Source: an uncultured Bacilli bacterium
Lineage (GTDB): Bacteria > Bacillota_I > Bacilli_A > RF39 > UBA660
Reading direction: 5' to 3'
DNA length: 17,230 bases
Assembly: GCA_949065595.1 (NCBI GenBank)
Contig: CARSXK010000007.1
Coordinates: 16,539-33,768 of the forward strand
Below, one piece after another: positions 2,813-9,708 of the stretch. Numbering within the stretch: the stretch's first letter is position 1; every line of letters starts with the position of its first letter. A model generated the notes under the pieces. That model was not told where the DNA came from, ran no database searches, and was given only the letters and a program-made list of their open reading frames with translations. The translations under genes were made by a program, and so were the position numbers.

Positions 2813-3361
2813 TTATTTTGCAGAAAAAATGCTATTGATAGATGGGAATCTTTTTAAGACTTCATCTATGTTTGTTTCAATTTGGTTCATCATTGTTTCA
2901 TTGTAATTTGATTTTCTTGTAAATGATATTTCATAAGGTTTAAATGTGATGGTAAATGCATTTTCATGTTCTGATCCTACATCTTCTCTGTCTCGTTTAA
3001 AATTCAAATTCATTTTAATCTCTAAACTACTCATTTCATTTAAACCTTTTTCCTCTATTGTTTCTTCAAATTCCTGTAAATTATGACAAGTAGTACTACT
3101 ATACATTTTTCCTCTCAATGTGATTTCAAAAAATGTACTTCCCTTTTTAAAACTATAGTTATATTCTCCATGTTGTCCTTTATTTTTTTCTACTTCTTCT
3201 GTAAGCGCAATAAATTTATTGTACTCATCGCAACAATATTGTACTAAATATTGAATACATTCTCCTGTTGGCACAATTGTTGAATAATAATGTTGATTCT
3301 CAATTCCAAATGGTGTATTTTCATCCATATAGTTGTTCACTTTTCCACTCCTTCTTTCCAT
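2813..3361 (-). CDS. Hypothetical protein (no recognisable motif)
   Basis: 182-aa ORF with coding-like composition on the same strand as its neighbours. The start is uncertain: ATG at 3361, or GTG at 3340, which is preceded by AAGGAG. Confidence 0.55.
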   Translation of the reverse strand: MERRSGKVNNYMDENTPFGIENQHYYSTIVPTGECIQYLVQYCCDEYNKFIALTEEVEKNKGQHGEYNYSFKKGSTFFEITLRGKMYSSTTCHNLQEFEETIEEKGLNEMSSLEIKMNLNFKRDREDVGSEHENAFTITFKPYEISFTRKSNYNETMMNQIETNIDEVLKRFPSINSIFSAK

Positions 3362-4840: not shown

Positions 4841-5224
4841 CTAAAATGCAACAACACAAAAGCGGTAAAGATCACTTACAATTTTTTGTACCGATGCTCT
4901 ATCTTTAACAGTAAATACAATAATTACATTAGAAGGTAGAAAATAACCACCCATTTCCCTATCTTTTACAAGTCCAACATAACGTTTCTGCAATTCTTCT
5001 GAAATTACATCAATTCCTCTAATCACAAAATATGTAATTTTTCCATTTTGAGCTAACAAATTCATTTTTTCTTTAAAAATAGGTTCAGAATAACAAAATA
5101 AATATGCACTGTCCATTCCAGCATCCATCACTAGTGTTTGTCCTAAATTTCTATACGCCTCATCTAAAATGACACAACAAGTTGCTTTACATCCTCTTTG
5201 TAACTCTATTAACGCCTTATTCAT
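4841..5224 (-). CDS. Hypothetical 127-aa protein, translationally coupled between the ATPase and VWA genes
   Basis: Its ATG overlaps the upstream TGA (ATGA at 5221-5224). Its stop at 4841-4843 overlaps the RBS of the VWA gene. No recognisable motif. Confidence 0.65.
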   Translation of the reverse strand: MNKALIELQRGCKATCCVILDEAYRNLGQTLVMDAGMDSAYLFCYSEPIFKEKMNLLAQNGKITYFVIRGIDVISEELQKRYVGLVKDREMGGYFLPSNVIIVFTVKDRASVQKIVSDLYRFCVVAF

Positions 5225-7134
5225 CTTCTCTTTCCAACTCCTTCACTTTGTGTAGTATGATAAGCCATAGCTAGTTCCTTCAATTCATTAATCTTTACCA
5301 TTTTATTTTCATCTGTACCAATCCAAAGCAAGTCATAAAGTTCCCGGTATTCTGGATCACAATATTGATTGATGAAAGTTCTACAGATTCCAACTTGGTT
5401 CTCATCAGCTAAAAGTAAAGAGATCATGCATGCGAATCGTTCATTGATATTTCTTGGTAAATCCGCCTGTGTATAAGTTTCCTTCACCACTTCTTCTACT
5501 GTAAGTGTAGGAATATTATAAAAGTTTAAAAATTCAGCTGCCCACCCCTCTCGGAGTTTTGTACCAATCGATATTTGCAATAAATTTTCTACGTTTTTTC
5601 CAATCAATTTTCCCGCGATTAAATCCTTTTCAAATGCATATAGTGTGTTGGAAATGGAAACCCAACCACGTGGATCATTGGTTCTACCATGACAATCATA
5701 TCGATCCAAATGTTTCTCACCAACTTCAGGTTCTTCATAGAAATAATCCATATTACAAATTTTTTCACTTCTACCTTTTTCTATATATTTTGAAGCAATA
5801 TACCCGATAACAGCAGGATGTACTTGGTTTGGAATTGCATATTCATAAATCCATTCTCCTACATGTGGTTCCATATCAAAAATATGATCAAATCTTTTTT
5901 CAAGCGGTTCTGCTACATCCTCTGCAACATTCGAATATTTCTTTTGGTTACCAGTGGCAACAATCACAGTATTCGCTGGCAATTTTAATCCCTTACCTGT
6001 TTCTACCAATCTATTTAATACCAAGGTATAAACCAAACATTGAACGGCAGGTTTTACATTCAATAATTCATCCAATAAAATGACAATTTTTTTAGTACTT
6101 GTCTTGGATCTTTCATAAATCGTATCCGCTATTTCATAAAGATTCTGTATATTGTCTTGTACCATTTTTCTTTCTGCATCAGTGGCACAAGACAAAAGTG
6201 CCTGTTTCGCAAAATCAGGAGGAATATTTTGACCTGTTTGGAAGTTCATAGATCCTACTACTTTTTCAGGAAGCATATTATTGGTTAACTTAATATAAAT
6301 TAAATCTGGATAAAGTGTTTTAATACGTTCTGTTTTTCCAATTCCAGAAGGTCCTCTTAAAAGAACAGATTGTCCAGCTTCAATCCAATTATGGATGATT
6401 TCAGTATCCGTCATGTTACGCCTTTCTGATGGAACGGTCGTATCAGGATTCAGTTTTTGCAATCTAGTTTCTCGCTTCAATCCTGATGTATTTATATTTA
6501 TGTTTTCAGATGACTTCGATAATCTTTGTATGGCTTCAAGTGCTTTTGCAAAACAGTTATCCAAATATTTTTTGATATCCGTTTGTTCAAAATTTCCTGT
6601 ATAATTACTGACATGATTGAATTGTACACCTGCAAACAATATTTTTTTTGCCACTACTTCATGCTTTTGTTCATCCACCAACCATTTGATTGGTTCAACT
6701 GCTATCCAATAAGGTTTATTTATTTGTACTTTGCTGCCATCTGATAAGGTTTCTCCCTTTGCATTTTTGTCACCCAAAAAGCGAATATATTTCTTACCCC
6801 TATATTCGTACGCAATATGATTTCGTTTTTGAAATTCTATATCATAATCACTGATATCAACAGAATCAGTTGGAAACTCGATATCTGTTTCCTTTAGTGT
6901 TTTTCTTTGATATTCCGTTTCTAATTGTGTTGCAATCGCACTTTCTACCACAGTTTGTGGCCATTCAAAGCACTCAACTTCAAAAACTCCACTAGCCCCT
7001 CTCACTTCGTTCGAGGAGATAGAAGAGATGGATGAGTATGGTAAAGCTGGACGCGCCCCAACATTGCGCGTTACTAACAGTGTTTTAGTAACTATTACCG
7101 TAACTGTCAACGACGCGCGCGTCATTATCCCCAT
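5221..7134 (-). CDS. AAA_5/MoxR-like ATPase; main body of the DGR target protein. The annotated first ~27 codons are an out-of-frame read of the VR.
   Basis: Walker A LLRGPSGIGKT (nt 6331-6354). Walker B VILLDELLNVKPAVQCLVYTLVLNR. Sensor-1-like TVIVATGNQ. Upstream of the ATPase lies NVGARPAL...FEWPQTVV...PIKWLVDEQ...IKKYLDNCF (a binding-module remnant). The ORF ends in TGA, which overlaps the next ATG. Confidence 0.8.
   Translation of the reverse strand: MGIMTRASLTVTVIVTKTLLVTRNVGARPALPYSSISSISSNEVRGASGVFEVECFEWPQTVVESAIATQLETEYQRKTLKETDIEFPTDSVDISDYDIEFQKRNHIAYEYRGKKYIRFLGDKNAKGETLSDGSKVQINKPYWIAVEPIKWLVDEQKHEVVAKKILFAGVQFNHVSNYTGNFEQTDIKKYLDNCFAKALEAIQRLSKSSENININTSGLKRETRLQKLNPDTTVPSERRNMTDTEIIHNWIEAGQSVLLRGPSGIGKTERIKTLYPDLIYIKLTNNMLPEKVVGSMNFQTGQNIPPDFAKQALLSCATDAERKMVQDNIQNLYEIADTIYERSKTSTKKIVILLDELLNVKPAVQCLVYTLVLNRLVETGKGLKLPANTVIVATGNQKKYSNVAEDVAEPLEKRFDHIFDMEPHVGEWIYEYAIPNQVHPAVIGYIASKYIEKGRSEKICNMDYFYEEPEVGEKHLDRYDCHGRTNDPRGWVSISNTLYAFEKDLIAGKLIGKNVENLLQISIGTKLREGWAAEFLNFYNIPTLTVEEVVKETYTQADLPRNINERFACMISLLLADENQVGICRTFINQYCDPEYRELYDLLWIGTDENKMVKINELKELAMAYHTTQSEGVGKRR
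7047..7121 (-). repeat. DGR variable repeat (VR)
   Basis: Aligns with 8640-8713. There are 9 substitutions (VR 7070, 7073, 7076, 7080, 7090, 7102, 7103, 7104, 7108), and every one lies where the TR has A on the minus (coding) strand. All C, G and T positions are identical. The VR has one extra nucleotide at about 7069. Confidence 0.88.
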
Positions 7135-7330
7135 CTGAAGTTCTAGTCCACCACAAACCAGTACGGTCTTTTAATGTCCTTCCTTCACTTGTATATATAT
7201 CATTTGCTACATAACCGCCTAATAAAATAGCAAAATCTGTAATAGCACATTTTGTTCCATATTGTTTAAAGATATCTAATTGTTTATCCCCAAATATTTC
7301 ATTTTGTTCTAAAAATGTAAAATCAAGCAT
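7085..7330 (-). CDS. N-terminal fragment of the DGR target (binding-module half carrying the 5' part of the VR), ended by a TR-templated TAA
   Basis: 81 aa. RBS GGTGGTGA lies 7 nt before the ATG. FTFLEQNEIF...KCAITDFAILLGGYV...GLWWTRTSDGDNDARVVDSYGNSY*. TR codons in this frame are rich in AAC and AAT (AAC AAA AAC GGT AAT AGT AAC TAA AAC AAT), as expected for the true VR reading frame. Confidence 0.7.
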   Translation of the reverse strand: MLDFTFLEQNEIFGDKQLDIFKQYGTKCAITDFAILLGGYVANDIYTSEGRTLKDRTGLWWTRTSDGDNDARVVDSYGNSY

Positions 7331-7392
7331 AGTTAATCACCACCTATATCATAACATAATTTTGCTAATTGTAGACATTTTTTTACAATTTT

Positions 7393-8412
7393 TTAACGAT
7401 TTAACAATATATCTTTCCATTTCGAACAATCACTTGTCTTTTTAATATGATTATAAAATGCATTTTTTCGTACCAACACATAAGTATCATCAACCACACC
7501 CTTACGATATAACTTACCCAATGTTTTTAAATGTTTCTTCATTCTTTGTTTAGAAGAATATCTTAATTTCATGATAATTCTCCCACTAGAACTTACAATA
7601 TGACGATATCCTAAAAAATCAATTCCATTTTTTACCATACCAATTTGTGTTTTTTGATTGAGCTGTAAATCTAAAACAGTATTACATAATCTATTTATTT
7701 CATTTTTACAATGTGATAAAAACTTTTTATCTCTATGGATTAGTATCATATCATCCATATACCTTACATAATGTTTTACTTGCAATACCTCTTTGATATA
7801 ACGATCTACTACATTCAAGTAAAAAAGCGCAAACCATTGACTCGATTGATTTCCAAGCGGTAGTCCTCTATCTGCATAATCTGGCTGTTCCTGAACTAAT
7901 TTTCGGATCAACCACATTTCATCTTCAGAAAAATCAATTTTTTCTAATAAATGAATTAAAATATCATGATGGATACTCGGAAAATATTTATGAATATCAC
8001 ATTTTAAAAAATAAATATGATTGTTATTTTCCTTGCGATATTCTTTTCTTAAAAATTGATGTAAGCGATTGATTGCAAATGTAGTACCTTTTCCCTTTCG
8101 GCAAGCACAGTTATCATAGATCAGTTTCTTTTCTATGTTTGGTTTTAAACAAACATCACAAAAACATCTAATGACTACTCTATCTTTAAAAGGTAAAGCT
8201 TCTATTAATCGTTCTTTTGGTTCATAAATATAAAATTTTTTGTATGATCCTAACTGGTATTGTTTAGTCCAAAGCGCATTCATTAAACGATATAAATTGA
8301 TGGCTAAATCAGTTTCAAAACGAATGACCTCACCTTTATGTTGTTTTGATTTACGACAATTTTTATATGCCGTATATAAATTTTCAAACGTAAAGATTTC
8401 CTCTATTTGCAT
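7393..8412 (-). CDS. DGR-type reverse transcriptase
   Basis: 339 aa. Motifs in Bordetella bRT order: FENLYTAYKNCRKSK, YEPKERLIEALPFKDRVV, CACRKGKGT, FLKCDIHKYFPSI, GLPLGNQSSQWFALFYLNVVDRYIKE (the DGR-specific GxxxSQ motif), VRYMDDMILI, GIDFLGYR. GAGGAG lies 7 nt upstream of the ATG. Confidence 0.93.
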   Translation of the reverse strand: MQIEEIFTFENLYTAYKNCRKSKQHKGEVIRFETDLAINLYRLMNALWTKQYQLGSYKKFYIYEPKERLIEALPFKDRVVIRCFCDVCLKPNIEKKLIYDNCACRKGKGTTFAINRLHQFLRKEYRKENNNHIYFLKCDIHKYFPSIHHDILIHLLEKIDFSEDEMWLIRKLVQEQPDYADRGLPLGNQSSQWFALFYLNVVDRYIKEVLQVKHYVRYMDDMILIHRDKKFLSHCKNEINRLCNTVLDLQLNQKTQIGMVKNGIDFLGYRHIVSSSGRIIMKLRYSSKQRMKKHLKTLGKLYRKGVVDDTYVLVRKNAFYNHIKKTSDCSKWKDILLNR

Positions 8413-8639
8413 ACGTTACTCCTCTCAAAAAAAAGAAACACCCCTGATAACGCCCAAAGAATGATTCCATTCGTTGTTTGTGTGAGTGTTCATGTATTTT
8501 TCCATCGCACTAAGAATTCTCTTTTAGCGGTTAGAAAAGAAGAAAATTCCTTCACCTTACAATACGGACCTATTTTACATAAAATAAATTTCTCTGATCT
8601 GTTTTCTAGATTTGATTTCAAATCTCTTCAAAAGTGAAT
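8413..8639 (-). ncRNA. Untranslated spacer between TR and RT (probable Sp part of the DGR RNA)
   Basis: 227 nt with no credible same-strand ORF, lying between the 3' end of the TR and the RT ATG. It contains the hairpin AGATTTG-ATTT-CAAATCT (8608-8625), 15 nt beyond the end of the TR. The role is inferred by analogy with the Bordetella TR-Sp RNA. Confidence 0.4.
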
Positions 8640-8713
8640 CTGGACGCGCCCCAACATTGCGTTTTCTTACATTGTTTTAGTTACTATTACCGTTTTTGTT
8701 AACGACGCGCGCG
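8640..8713 (-). repeat. DGR template repeat (TR)
   Basis: Non-coding copy located between avd and RT. Minus-strand sequence: CGCGCGCGTCGTTAACAAAAACGGTAATAGTAACTAAAACAATGTAAGAAAACGCAATGTTGGGGCGCGTCCAG. It carries A at all 9 positions that differ from the VR. Confidence 0.88.
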
Positions 8714-8791
8714 AGCACACCAAAAGGGGCAAGAACAAAAACGCACAACTAAAAATTTTCTCCTTAATTAAAGATTTTTCAATCTAAAATC

Positions 8792-9376
8792 CTAATTTCT
8801 TTTACGCCATCTTTCATCATCACTCTTTTTCCAAGCAACAATTAAATTGATGGCTTCTGCTAATTGAATGGATATTTGCTTATATTGCTTTTTTAAAATA
8901 CAATTAGAGTCTTCCGCAATCATCGCAACATACCCTAAAAGTTTTAACTTTACAATTGCTTCTTTTTGAAGCTGTTCTCGGCTTATTTTATTGGTTCCAG
9001 AGTCCATTCGAATCAAATTAGCTTCCAACAACAATTCTAATGTATCTAAACAATAATTCTGCATTCTATTCACAAATACGCCTCTAAACTTTTTAGGGGA
9101 TTTTTCCGTCACCGCAATTACATAAGCACCCAACTTCTTTACAACCGTAATTACCATTAGATCATTTGCATTGAACGGAATCTTGGAAATTCTTTCCAAT
9201 TCCTGATCTTCTATTTCTAATTTTTCTCTTAAAGTATTTATATTTATTTTTTGTTCATTTACACGGGCAAGCGCTTTTTTGATTGCAATGGCATCATCTA
9301 TACTATTTGCACTTGTTTCATATTGTTCTACTTGCTTTGGTATTTTTAAACTACCATTTCTATTTACCTGCAGCAC
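8792..9376 (-). CDS. avd: Avd-like accessory variability determinant (four-helix-bundle protein) with an N-terminal extension
   Basis: The C-terminal ~120 aa (KSPKKFRGVFVNRMQNYCLDTLELLLEAN...ILKKQYKQISIQLAEAINLIVAWKKSDDERWRKRN) fit the Avd/four-helix-bundle pattern, including the basic tail. The position immediately 5' of the TR also fits. The probable start is GTG at 9376, with AGGAG 10 nt upstream. Confidence 0.72.
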   Translation of the reverse strand: MLQVNRNGSLKIPKQVEQYETSANSIDDAIAIKKALARVNEQKININTLREKLEIEDQELERISKIPFNANDLMVITVVKKLGAYVIAVTEKSPKKFRGVFVNRMQNYCLDTLELLLEANLIRMDSGTNKISREQLQKEAIVKLKLLGYVAMIAEDSNCILKKQYKQISIQLAEAINLIVAWKKSDDERWRKRN

Positions 9377-9398
9377 TACATCACAGCTCCTGATTGGT

Positions 9399-9407
9399 AT
9401 TATATCA
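9399..9407 (-). promoter_or_regulatory. Candidate extended -10 (TGATATAAT) upstream of avd
   Basis: The reverse complement of 9399-9407 is TGATATAAT. The -35 is poor and the element lies very close to the avd RBS, so the call is tentative. Confidence 0.25.
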
Positions 9408-9632
9408 CAAGATTTTATATTTTAAAATCATTACTTTCATTTTTGAAACATATATTAATAGAACAAAATACCCATTACTATCCATTTTATATTAAGGGAA
9501 CTATTCGATAATTTTTAACCAACATCAAAAATAATGCTATATGCATATATAATATTTTATATCATTTTACGATATTTAAAAATAAGAAAAATGCCCTGAA
9601 GTTATTTAAAATCAAGACATTTTAATATCATC

Positions 9633-9708
9633 TGGTGTTCCCGACAGGACTCGAACCCGTATCGGTCCCTTAGGAGGGGACTGCTCTATCCTGCTGAGCT
9701 ACGAGAAC
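9633..9708 (-). tRNA. tRNA-Arg (anticodon CCT), CCA encoded
   Basis: Minus strand: GTTCTCGTAGCTCAGCAGGATAGAGCAGTCCCCTCCTAAGGGACCGATACGGGTTCGAGTCCTGTCGGGAACACCA. The 7-bp acceptor stem, D arm GCTC/GAGC, anticodon stem GTCCC/GGGAC with loop CTCCTAA, and T loop TTCGAGT all fold as a cloverleaf. Confidence 0.9.

Follow-up and report, generated by a model that had tools for sequence, protein, structure and literature searches.

The canonical diversity-generating retroelements (DGRs), such as those of BPP-1 (mtd-avd-TR-brt), Treponema (TvpA) and Legionella (LdtA), combine a reverse transcriptase (RT) carrying an (I/L/V)GxxxSQ motif, an Avd-like gene, and a template repeat (TR) beside the RT gene, which is rich in AAY codons, differs from the variable repeat (VR) of the target gene by adenine-specific substitutions, and shares with it an identical, GC-rich 3' end. 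DGR papers repeatedly state that the placement of the TR adenines prevents nonsense codons. Here we describe a DGR in a 17,230-nucleotide stretch of DNA from an uncultured Bacilli bacterium (the window; GenBank assembly GCA_949065595.1, contig CARSXK010000007.1, positions 16,539 to 33,768 of the forward strand). The window DGR resembles the canonical elements in the above features, its Avd-like gene being a putative one, but its TR breaks the nonsense-avoidance rule, containing TAA, AAA (twice) and AGA in frame, so that homing can write stop codons. The TAA is present in both the TR and the VR, where it interrupts the target gene. We conclude that the window probably contains a reversible OFF allele of the DGR target, caused by the ochre codon of the template together with a single extra base (+1) inside the VR.

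Comparison with the canonical DGRs also shows that the window target lies 3' of the RT gene, that its VR lies close to the 5' end of the 2.1-kb gene rather than at the C-terminus, and that no downstream hairpin was detected. The nonsense-avoidance rule is a generalisation and not a criterion for DGR membership; those defining features of a DGR that were open to testing were observed here, in that the RT has the motif, the TR and VR differ in an adenine-specific manner, and the VR has changed between genomes that are nearly clonal. A major curated DGR survey discarded candidates with premature stops, and elements of the present kind would therefore stay hidden. Full-text literature searches, whose coverage is not exhaustive, returned no description of natural TR-encoded stops.

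In architecture, the window element is closest to two described systems. One is that of the tentaclins, phage DGR targets in which an N-terminal DUF6273-like C-type-lectin domain is followed by Ig domains (Morozova et al. 2023, PMC10743442). The VR domain of the window target is likewise N-terminal and gives a weak DUF6273 signal, and its VR is predicted to be a beta-hairpin at the surface. In contrast to the tentaclins, the window element is cellular and chromosomal, and an AAA_5 ATPase rather than Ig domains follows the VR domain. The tentaclin paper is silent on TR stop codons (PMC10743442). The other is that of the MoxR-vWA 'ternary' conflict systems of multicellular bacteria, which contain DGR-diversified FGS/C-lectin domains (Kaur et al. 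2020, PMC7159879; Dore et al. 2024, PMC10907252), and whose TRs are reported to avoid nonsense codons. Like them, the window locus couples a hypervariable, DGR-targeted lectin-like sensor with an apparently MoxR-type AAA+ ATPase and a vWA-like partner, and would be intracellular. In the conflict systems, the FGS domain is C-terminal on the vWA component in a strict syntax, and the hosts are cyanobacteria or gammaproteobacteria, whereas the window VR domain is N-terminal on the ATPase, the family occurs in gut Firmicutes, and no third component was recognised at the window locus. Contingency loci, which switch by slipped-strand mispairing or invertible DNA, share with the window the occurrence of ON and OFF alleles among near-clonal genomes, a single hypermutable tract, and purifying selection elsewhere in the gene. 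They differ in that their switching occurs by repeat-length change or recombinase inversion, whereas that of the window would be the templated rewriting of a codon by an RT, coupled to diversification of a binding site.

Alignment of the TR (~8714->8638) with the VR (~7122->7045), both on the minus strand, extended over 77/78 nt. All 9-10 in-repeat substitutions (the count varies with placement of the indel) were located at TR adenines, and the probability of 10/10 substitutions falling on adenines by chance is 4e-5, given 36.5% A. The same adenine-only pattern was present in 30+ related loci. TR and VR share an unchanged GC-rich 3' end, GTTGGGGCGCGTCCAG, beyond which their flanks diverge. Translated in the AAY-rich frame of the target, the TR reads ARVVNKNGNSN*NNVRKRNVGARP (asterisk, stop). 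The TAA, at a codon which we designate P10, is in frame in both copies (TR 8677-8679, VR 7085-7087), and in the VR it ends an 81-aa open reading frame (ORF). An alternative genetic code, in which TGA encodes Trp or TAA is reassigned, was rejected: TAA, TAG and TGA all end long ORFs, TGA-containing ORFs were not rescued, and TAA is the commonest genuine stop of the genome (9/14 long ORFs).

The VR also contains one extra base relative to the TR, which shifts the frame. The preliminary description, made from the window sequence by itself, had placed this base at about 7069 in a GCGCG run; three placements in ~7066-7075, either beside the GCGCG run or inside an A-run, are equally good. The two ORFs resulting from the interruption (7085..7330 and 5221..7134) share a 50-nt overlap. 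Residues 1-22 or 1-23 of the 637-aa ORF (7134-7069) are the VR read out of frame: MGIMTRASLTVTVIVTKTLLVT is the VR in the other frame, and the right frame resumes at RNVGARPALPYSS. In these respects, as for the identical TAA in TR and VR, the preliminary description had read the locus correctly.

To compare the window with its relatives, we refer to related loci by L numbers and to protein clusters by P numbers. Locus L003 is identical to the window, L155 is 99.1% identical, L001 has ~92% protein identity, and L004/L005 have 67-69%. The TRs of L003, L155, L001 and L158 are identical or near-identical to that of the window. A TAA at P10 of the TR is common to the window/L003/L155, L001, L004/L005 and L158, representing at least four lineages, and the synonymous divergence (dS) between lineages with the TR stop reaches 1.1-1.3 (maximum 1.29). 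The claim that the stop is templated by the TR and is not a sequencing error is thus borne out by the relatives. The ratio of nonsynonymous to synonymous divergence (dN/dS) was 0.12-0.27 over the 70 codons that precede the VR, and 0.09-0.18 over the ~605 that follow it. No stops or frameshifts were found outside the VR in ~1.9 kb in any lineage compared. Both halves of the gene are under purifying selection. The low dN/dS on both halves and the lack of lesions outside the VR therefore argue strongly against an early or fixed pseudogene.

The P10 codon in the VR varied among the relatives. It was TAA in the window, L155, L002 and L005, TAG in L001, L156 and L004, and TGA in L157, while sense codons were present in L158 (TTA), L159 (TTC) and L083 (TGT). 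In L158, the decisive case, a single locus with the synteny of the window, the TR contains TAA, the VR contains TTA, and the 642-aa target is uninterrupted. In L159 (P0213), of the L004/L005 lineage, TTC at P10 is accompanied by an intact 694-aa gene. These alleles show that ON and OFF states are made from the same TR codon, and that adenine mutagenesis converts the stop to sense in a fraction of homing events, as the preliminary description had anticipated. Its further expectation, that a VR of TR length would restore a single frame, also held: the VR and TR are of equal length and in one frame in L155, L001 and L002.

Comparison of closely related genomes showed recent rewriting of the VR. 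L001 and L002 have 0 differences in 680 codons outside the VR, and many at adenine positions within it. Between the window and L155, 8/10 real differences in ~6.5 kb fall within 26 nt (7065-7090) that flank the TAA on either side. These two genomes are identical in the 5' half of the VR (7091-7122), while the 3' half (7065-7090) differs at 7 positions and by the indel. This pattern suggests a partial, 3'-anchored replacement of the VR by cDNA, rather than a full rewrite. The outcome that the preliminary description would have taken as a sign of a fixed pseudogene, with the same TAA and the same extra base in all strains, was not what we found: VR heterogeneity is present, and no genotype but that of the window has the extra base.

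The VR of L083, in metagenome contig ERZ777305 NODE-2186, has an unusual structure. In L083:3420-3620, a mutagenised VR body with its 3' flank follows directly on the Avd gene and the 5' flank of the TR. Neither the RT gene nor the N-terminal part of the target is present, and one change (GGT to GTT) is not at an adenine. This is apparently a TR/VR recombination deletion of ~1.6 kb, or an assembly chimera.

The +1 base was seen only in the window, L003 and P0205, and was absent from L155, L001, L002, L156 and L157. An exact look-up of the 637-aa ORF of the window gave no record; P0205 of the cluster table is the same sequence. Different lesions were present in the VRs of the same lineage, including another +1 (P0189 with P0207), a frameshift (P0184) and a stop at an upstream AAA-templated codon (P0185, 'ARVVY*'). 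VR indels relative to the cognate TR were also found in L071, L050 and L049, always in A-rich tracts. Slippage indels made by a DGR RT have been discussed experimentally (PMC12875486), and we infer that the +1 of the window is a by-product of homing, most likely RT slippage in an A-rich stretch. A further related lineage has many frameshifted N-terminal ORFs of ~107 aa, and contains at least 11 clusters of 93-108-aa ORFs with frameshifts at varied places in the VR and a common out-of-frame tail (...MVGLAQLYLTLQS...SPRTE; P0130, P0132, P0140, P0142, P0146, P0149-P0151, P0158, P0159 and P0161). In this family, OFF alleles thus seem often to arise by indels as a second route, or else VRs pose a recurrent assembly problem.

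To define the normal form of the target, the window gene was repaired in silico by replacing TAA with a Tyr codon and removing one base, giving a 702-aa protein. This protein has >100 homologs of ~700-740 aa, with 99-100% coverage and 59-67% identity, and the 81-aa ORF aligns with residues 1-81 of intact ~700-aa homologs. By these alignments, the normal target is a single protein of ~700 aa, with an N-terminal VR domain and an AAA_5 ATPase, and the ~700-aa fusion predicted by the preliminary description is the norm for the family. The VR domain spans residues 1-~125, with no Ig or Fn3 match downstream. This N-terminal module of ~125 residues is present in 1,251 representative clusters, where it is nearly always N-terminal, and its partners vary (AAA_5 ATPase, ankyrin repeats, DUF4116).

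An AlphaFold2 model of the N-terminal module was obtained from a 73-sequence alignment (predicted local distance difference test score, pLDDT, 90; predicted template-modelling score, pTM, 0.80), following an unusable model from a 27-sequence alignment (pLDDT 47). In the model, the VR forms a beta-hairpin of strands 71-75 and 81-85, and the window stop maps to residue 83, halfway along the latter strand; the 81-aa product is therefore predicted to lack about one third of the VR domain. In searches with PF19789 (DUF6273, cut-off 23.5 bits), the repaired window protein scored 19.8 bits and P0024 scored 21.8 bits, while P0220, a member of the same N-domain family, scored 26.3 bits over the same region. 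The best Foldseek matches in BFVD were DUF6273 phage proteins (E 2.6e-3 to 0.4, template-modelling score 0.4-0.5). A Foldseek search of the PDB with the N-domain model gave no significant match, and a PDB sequence profile search gave a chance-level match only. The evidence for a DUF6273-like, C-type-lectin-like fold in the model is weak but consistent.

Other target genes of the family differ in architecture. Some members, namely P0003 (962 aa) and those at L010:3716 and 4508, contain two tandem N-terminal VR modules before the ATPase in one protein, each with a VR-like segment. The target of L158 (L158:4001-5929, P0193) shares its VR domain and middle region with the window target, while its C-terminal NTPase region is strongly divergent, with the Walker-A-like sequence HGRSSEGKS in place of RGPSGIGKT; this comparison suggests exchange of modules behind a conserved sensor domain. 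The Clostridia-type loci L009, L011, L013-L016 and L085-L088 have two paralogous targets ~3 kb apart and one TR. In L009, L011 and L088, both VR segments are identical over the 78-90 nt compared. Targets that diversify independently would not be expected to show this, and a recent duplication, gene conversion or collapse in assembly may be the cause.

In-frame stops were not confined to the window TR. Of 22 distinct TRs of the family, 11 contained one, and three codon positions were involved: TAA at P10 (the window clade, with four TRs), TGA at P10 (L018, L075), TAA at P4 (L008, L020, L058, L042) and TAA at P15 (L037). The corresponding VR codons included TGG, TCG and TGC (sense) and TGA (stop) at P4, TGT (sense) and TGA (stop) for the P10-TGA templates, and TAA (stop) at P15, giving 11 stops and 7 sense codons in total. 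At these positions other TRs have TGG, TAC or AAC (at P10, TGG in L008, L020 and L058, and TAC in L015 and L071), and intact homologs mostly have F, L, S, Y, C or W. From these residues, P4, P10 and P15 look like aromatic hotspot positions. The T-A-A template is the only adenine-mutable codon able to reach Trp. In the protein database, at least 35 clusters of N-terminal ORFs end at exactly these codons (74-75, 80-81 and 85-86 aa).

To estimate how often the template would yield each state, we used 30 clean TR/VR pairs from this family to compile an adenine spectrum. In the VR, adenines of the TR appeared as A (57%), G (21%), T (13%) and C (9%). Retrohoming would rewrite the VR from adenine-mutagenised TR cDNA, redrawing T-A-A as T-N-N. 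With the above spectrum, the expected stop fraction is 0.564, such that ~56% of draws would stay stop (TAA, TAG or TGA), and ~44% would give Tyr (12.6%), Leu (10.3%), Ser (8.9%), Cys (4.6%), Trp (4.4%) or Phe (2.9%). When the two AAA codons and AGA are counted too, ~35% of full homing events would give an open VR. For relatives with AAY-type-only TR codons (L006-type), P(no stop)=1.0. The window allele is an OFF draw with an additional +1 indel, which would be harmless while the upstream stop stands. Both lesions lie inside the VR, and the next homing would therefore overwrite both the stop and the +1, giving good support to the view of the preliminary description that the gene is currently OFF and repairable. 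We infer that the ON alleles are the functional state, and that switching may take place within populations on ecological time scales. The pattern resembles that of a contingency locus, with ON/OFF variation in one hypermutable tract (P10, AAA-derived stops and indels, all in the VR) and dN/dS far below 1.

The observed frequency of OFF alleles was at or above this expectation. P10 stops were present in 5/5 loci found regardless of VR state (p=0.057), in ~9/10 by clusters of the C-terminal part (p=0.028), and in 16/19 of all readable variants (p=0.011), the last being partly ascertainment-biased, with the 81-aa ORF used as query. Pooling of all TAA-template VRs gave 17/23 OFF (p=0.066). Clearly, there has been no purging of OFF alleles; they may even be in slight excess, and the counts fit both neutrality and selection for OFF. 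The excess of stops was set aside as evidence of selection for OFF, being marginal and partly ascertainment-biased.

Several observations weigh against a reversible OFF allele. With OFF at least as frequent as the neutral expectation, ON looks rare, and might be dispensable or even counter-selected. The ON and OFF alleles come from a comparison between genomes, and switching within one population would be a prediction. The +1 may have come from homing, or from a replication or assembly error. The match of the Avd-like protein is below threshold. No BPP-1-like hairpin was found 3' of the VR (106 nt from the VR 3' end into the flank; z=+1.08). A downstream hairpin is not universal among DGRs.

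Alternative explanations of the locus differ in how far they depart from a reversible OFF allele. The one that survives best is that AT-biased mutation turned an aromatic codon of the TR into the stop, which persists because the target is mostly dispensable, OFF alleles being neutral by-products without a regulatory role. We regard this as a plausible account that falls short of being probable. It fits the TGG, TAC or AAC found at the same position in other TRs, the ~30% GC of the genomes, the pooled OFF count (17/23), which is near the neutral 0.56 (p=0.066), and the pile-up of further frameshifts and AAA-derived stops in the same lineage. However, purifying selection over dS>1 indicates that the full gene is used often enough for its upkeep, and TR stops at three hotspots in several lineages amount to more than one accident.

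A rather unlikely, though possible, explanation is that the TR stop is selected, the DGR being both a diversifier and a phase-variation switch for a costly or self-harmful sensor-ATPase, in a form of bet-hedging. This reading sharpens that of a reversible OFF allele without contradicting it. Every lineage sampled from the clade has kept the TR stop over dS ~1.2, when one A-to-C/T change (TAA to TAY) would be enough to remove all stops, but TR third positions are slow to change in general (14/22 codons unchanged among four TRs), and retention of TAA is not significant by itself. We therefore dropped retention across lineages as evidence of selection, most TR third positions being likewise unchanged. 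The recurrence of TR stops at three positions, in 11/22 TRs and with several apparent origins, and the purifying selection on both halves, as in classical contingency genes, agree with selection of the stop. OFF alleles slightly above neutral also agree with it, but the excess is marginal and partly biased. L006-type clades, whose TRs are unable to make stops, do well, and ON is thus not generally harmful. The stochastic gate put forward in the preliminary description fits the mechanism, while its adaptive value is a hypothesis.

It is very unlikely that the gene is genuinely split, with an 81-aa peptide and a ~590-aa protein from an internal start both functional. Nearly all sampled clade members are split at P10, with stop-to-stop changes (TAG, TGA) among them, and gene callers place a GTG start 79 nt past the stop. 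Against this, intact clades have the same GTG with the same sequence ahead of it, and no Shine-Dalgarno-like sequence is present, for which reasons a dedicated internal start for the downstream part was rejected. Moreover, the 81-aa product would end mid-strand in the VR hairpin with ~1/3 of the domain missing, the stretch from the stop to the GTG still codes GARPALPYSSISS with synonymous changes between lineages, and full-length ON alleles are present in the clade.

We give scarcely any credence to an assembly or consensus artefact of a VR-heterogeneous population, which the preliminary description had raised and which would apply at least to the extra base, being unlikely for the TAA. VRs are hypervariable, and many of the relatives are from metagenome assemblies, in which frameshifted VR ORFs are common. 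However, this exact VR, +1 included, has come out of assembly repeatedly (L003; P0205, with 3 contigs from NCBI and Logan), a mixture of equal-length variants cannot yield an indel, and the TAA is in the non-variable TR itself. A fixed pseudogene or early decay of the target, also raised previously, is the least credible: the window VR has two lesions and all close genotypes sampled are interrupted too, but dN/dS is 0.09-0.27 on the two halves across lineages sharing the TR stop, no other lesions occur in ~1.9 kb in any lineage, the lesions stay within the VR and vary from one near-identical genome to another, the same TR is also found with intact ON alleles, and the RT ORF is intact.

The DGR cassette is arranged on the minus strand in the order Avd-like gene, TR, spacer of 225 nt, RT, split target, 127-aa ORF and DUF2201_N protein (Table 1). 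The match of the 194-aa Avd-like ORF to PF22296 (bAvd) in a profile search was weak (E 3.5e-5, 24.7 bits; cut-off 40 bits). By analogy with the BPP-1 avd-TR-brt layout, the spacer presumably belongs to the TR transcript. The intact RT ORF gave a generic PADLOC RT match (E 1.3e-36). The AAA_5 match of the target (23.9-27.7 bits) is just over the 22-bit cut-off, and placement in the MoxR clade is tentative. The DUF2201_N protein is a conserved partner of the ATPase, and its orthologous neighbour in L158 also matches PF09967 (DUF2201). The 127-aa gene is likely an operon partner of the target. The 127-aa ORF (4841-5224, minus strand) and a 182-aa ORF (2813-3361, minus strand) adjoin the target/DUF2201 pair in all related loci. 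Neither had a match in Pfam or PADLOC, and both are possible uncharacterised components of the system.

Table 1. Features of the DGR locus in the window (positions in the 17,230-nucleotide stretch)
Feature	Position	Strand	Evidence or remark
Avd-like accessory gene, 194 aa	8792..9376	-	5' of TR; same position in related loci
Template repeat (TR)	~8638..8714	-	Non-coding; in-frame TAA 8677-8679; stop-capable AAA (twice) and AGA
Non-coding spacer between TR and RT, 225 nt	8413..8637	-	Position only
DGR reverse transcriptase, 339 aa	7393..8412	-	RVT_1 E 4.6e-19; LGNQSSQ motif; YMDD
5' fragment of target, 81 aa	7085..7330	-	N-terminal two-thirds of DUF6273-like VR domain; ended by templated TAA
Variable repeat (VR) of target	~7045..7122	-	TR/VR alignment, adenine-only substitutions
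Ochre codon P10, copied from TR	7085-7087	-	Middle of second strand of modelled VR beta-hairpin
Interval holding the single extra VR base (+1) relative to TR; frame shifted	7066..7075	-	Three equivalent alignments
3' part of split target, 637-aa ORF	5221..7134	-	True frame from RNVGARPAL (7068): middle region, AAA_5 ATPase, C-terminal region
127-aa gene, start overlapping target stop	4841..5224	-	Also 3' of target in L001, L002, L003, L155, L158, L159
DUF2201_N metallopeptidase-like protein with vWA-like C-terminal region, 449 aa	3510..4859	-	PF13203 E 5.8e-20, 72.5 bits

The flanks of the cassette are ordinary chromosomal genes, encoding ProRS, LspA, a pseudouridine synthase, a rhomboid protein, a DUF3048 protein, an HD protein, spore coat F and tRNA-Arg(CCT). 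An Rfam scan of the window found the tRNA alone, and a PADLOC scan found a weak DolB-like match on the ATPase and generic RT matches, and no more. A megablast search of 5000-9500 against phage and plasmid collections gave zero matches, and an IMG/VR scan gave a single distant match; a phage-borne element was therefore rejected. Related loci are in gut metagenome-assembled genomes (MAGs) labelled Bacilli, Bacillales, Clostridia or 'Tenericutes', and genomes of the family have ~30% GC. The host is a low-GC, spore-forming gut Firmicute, and the DGR is chromosomal and working. Conservation of the DUF3048/HD synteny in L158 suggests long residence of the cassette.

The tRNA-Arg(CCT) is located at 9633-9708 (minus strand), ~260 nt 5' of the Avd-like gene, and the alignment of L155 to the window stops at 9642, where it overlaps the tRNA by its first 10 nt only. 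A tRNA site could have been the point of entry of the cassette. In L001 (L001:1153-3303), as compared with the window, a DNA methylase, an Eco47II-type restriction enzyme and an ASCH-domain gene lie between the HD and Avd-like genes, placing a defence-type insertion directly beside the DGR. L155 contains N-filled gaps (L155:5458-5473 and 5755-5782) beside Illumina-adapter-like sequence (…AGATCGGAAGAGCGTCG… in reverse) in the DUF2201 gene region, which are an assembly blemish of that MAG contig.

These results mean that DGRs can yield ON/OFF heterogeneity of expression in addition to diversity of a binding site, and that filters requiring an intact target may systematically hide a class of active elements. 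The family offers a testable system for the coupling of hypermutation with phase variation, and for the role of an N-terminally diversified AAA+ ATPase/vWA module. It is conceivable, but in our estimation doubtful, that the template nonsense codons are themselves selected, with retrohoming both diversifying the lectin-like sensor and flipping the expression of the attached MoxR-like ATPase/vWA system. If so, OFF would be the default 'safe' state, with a minority of cells ON and displaying new specificities, and the locus would represent a form of phase variation that is driven by an RT and tied to hypermutation, and that might protect an intracellular conflict or immunity system from its cost or self-reactivity.

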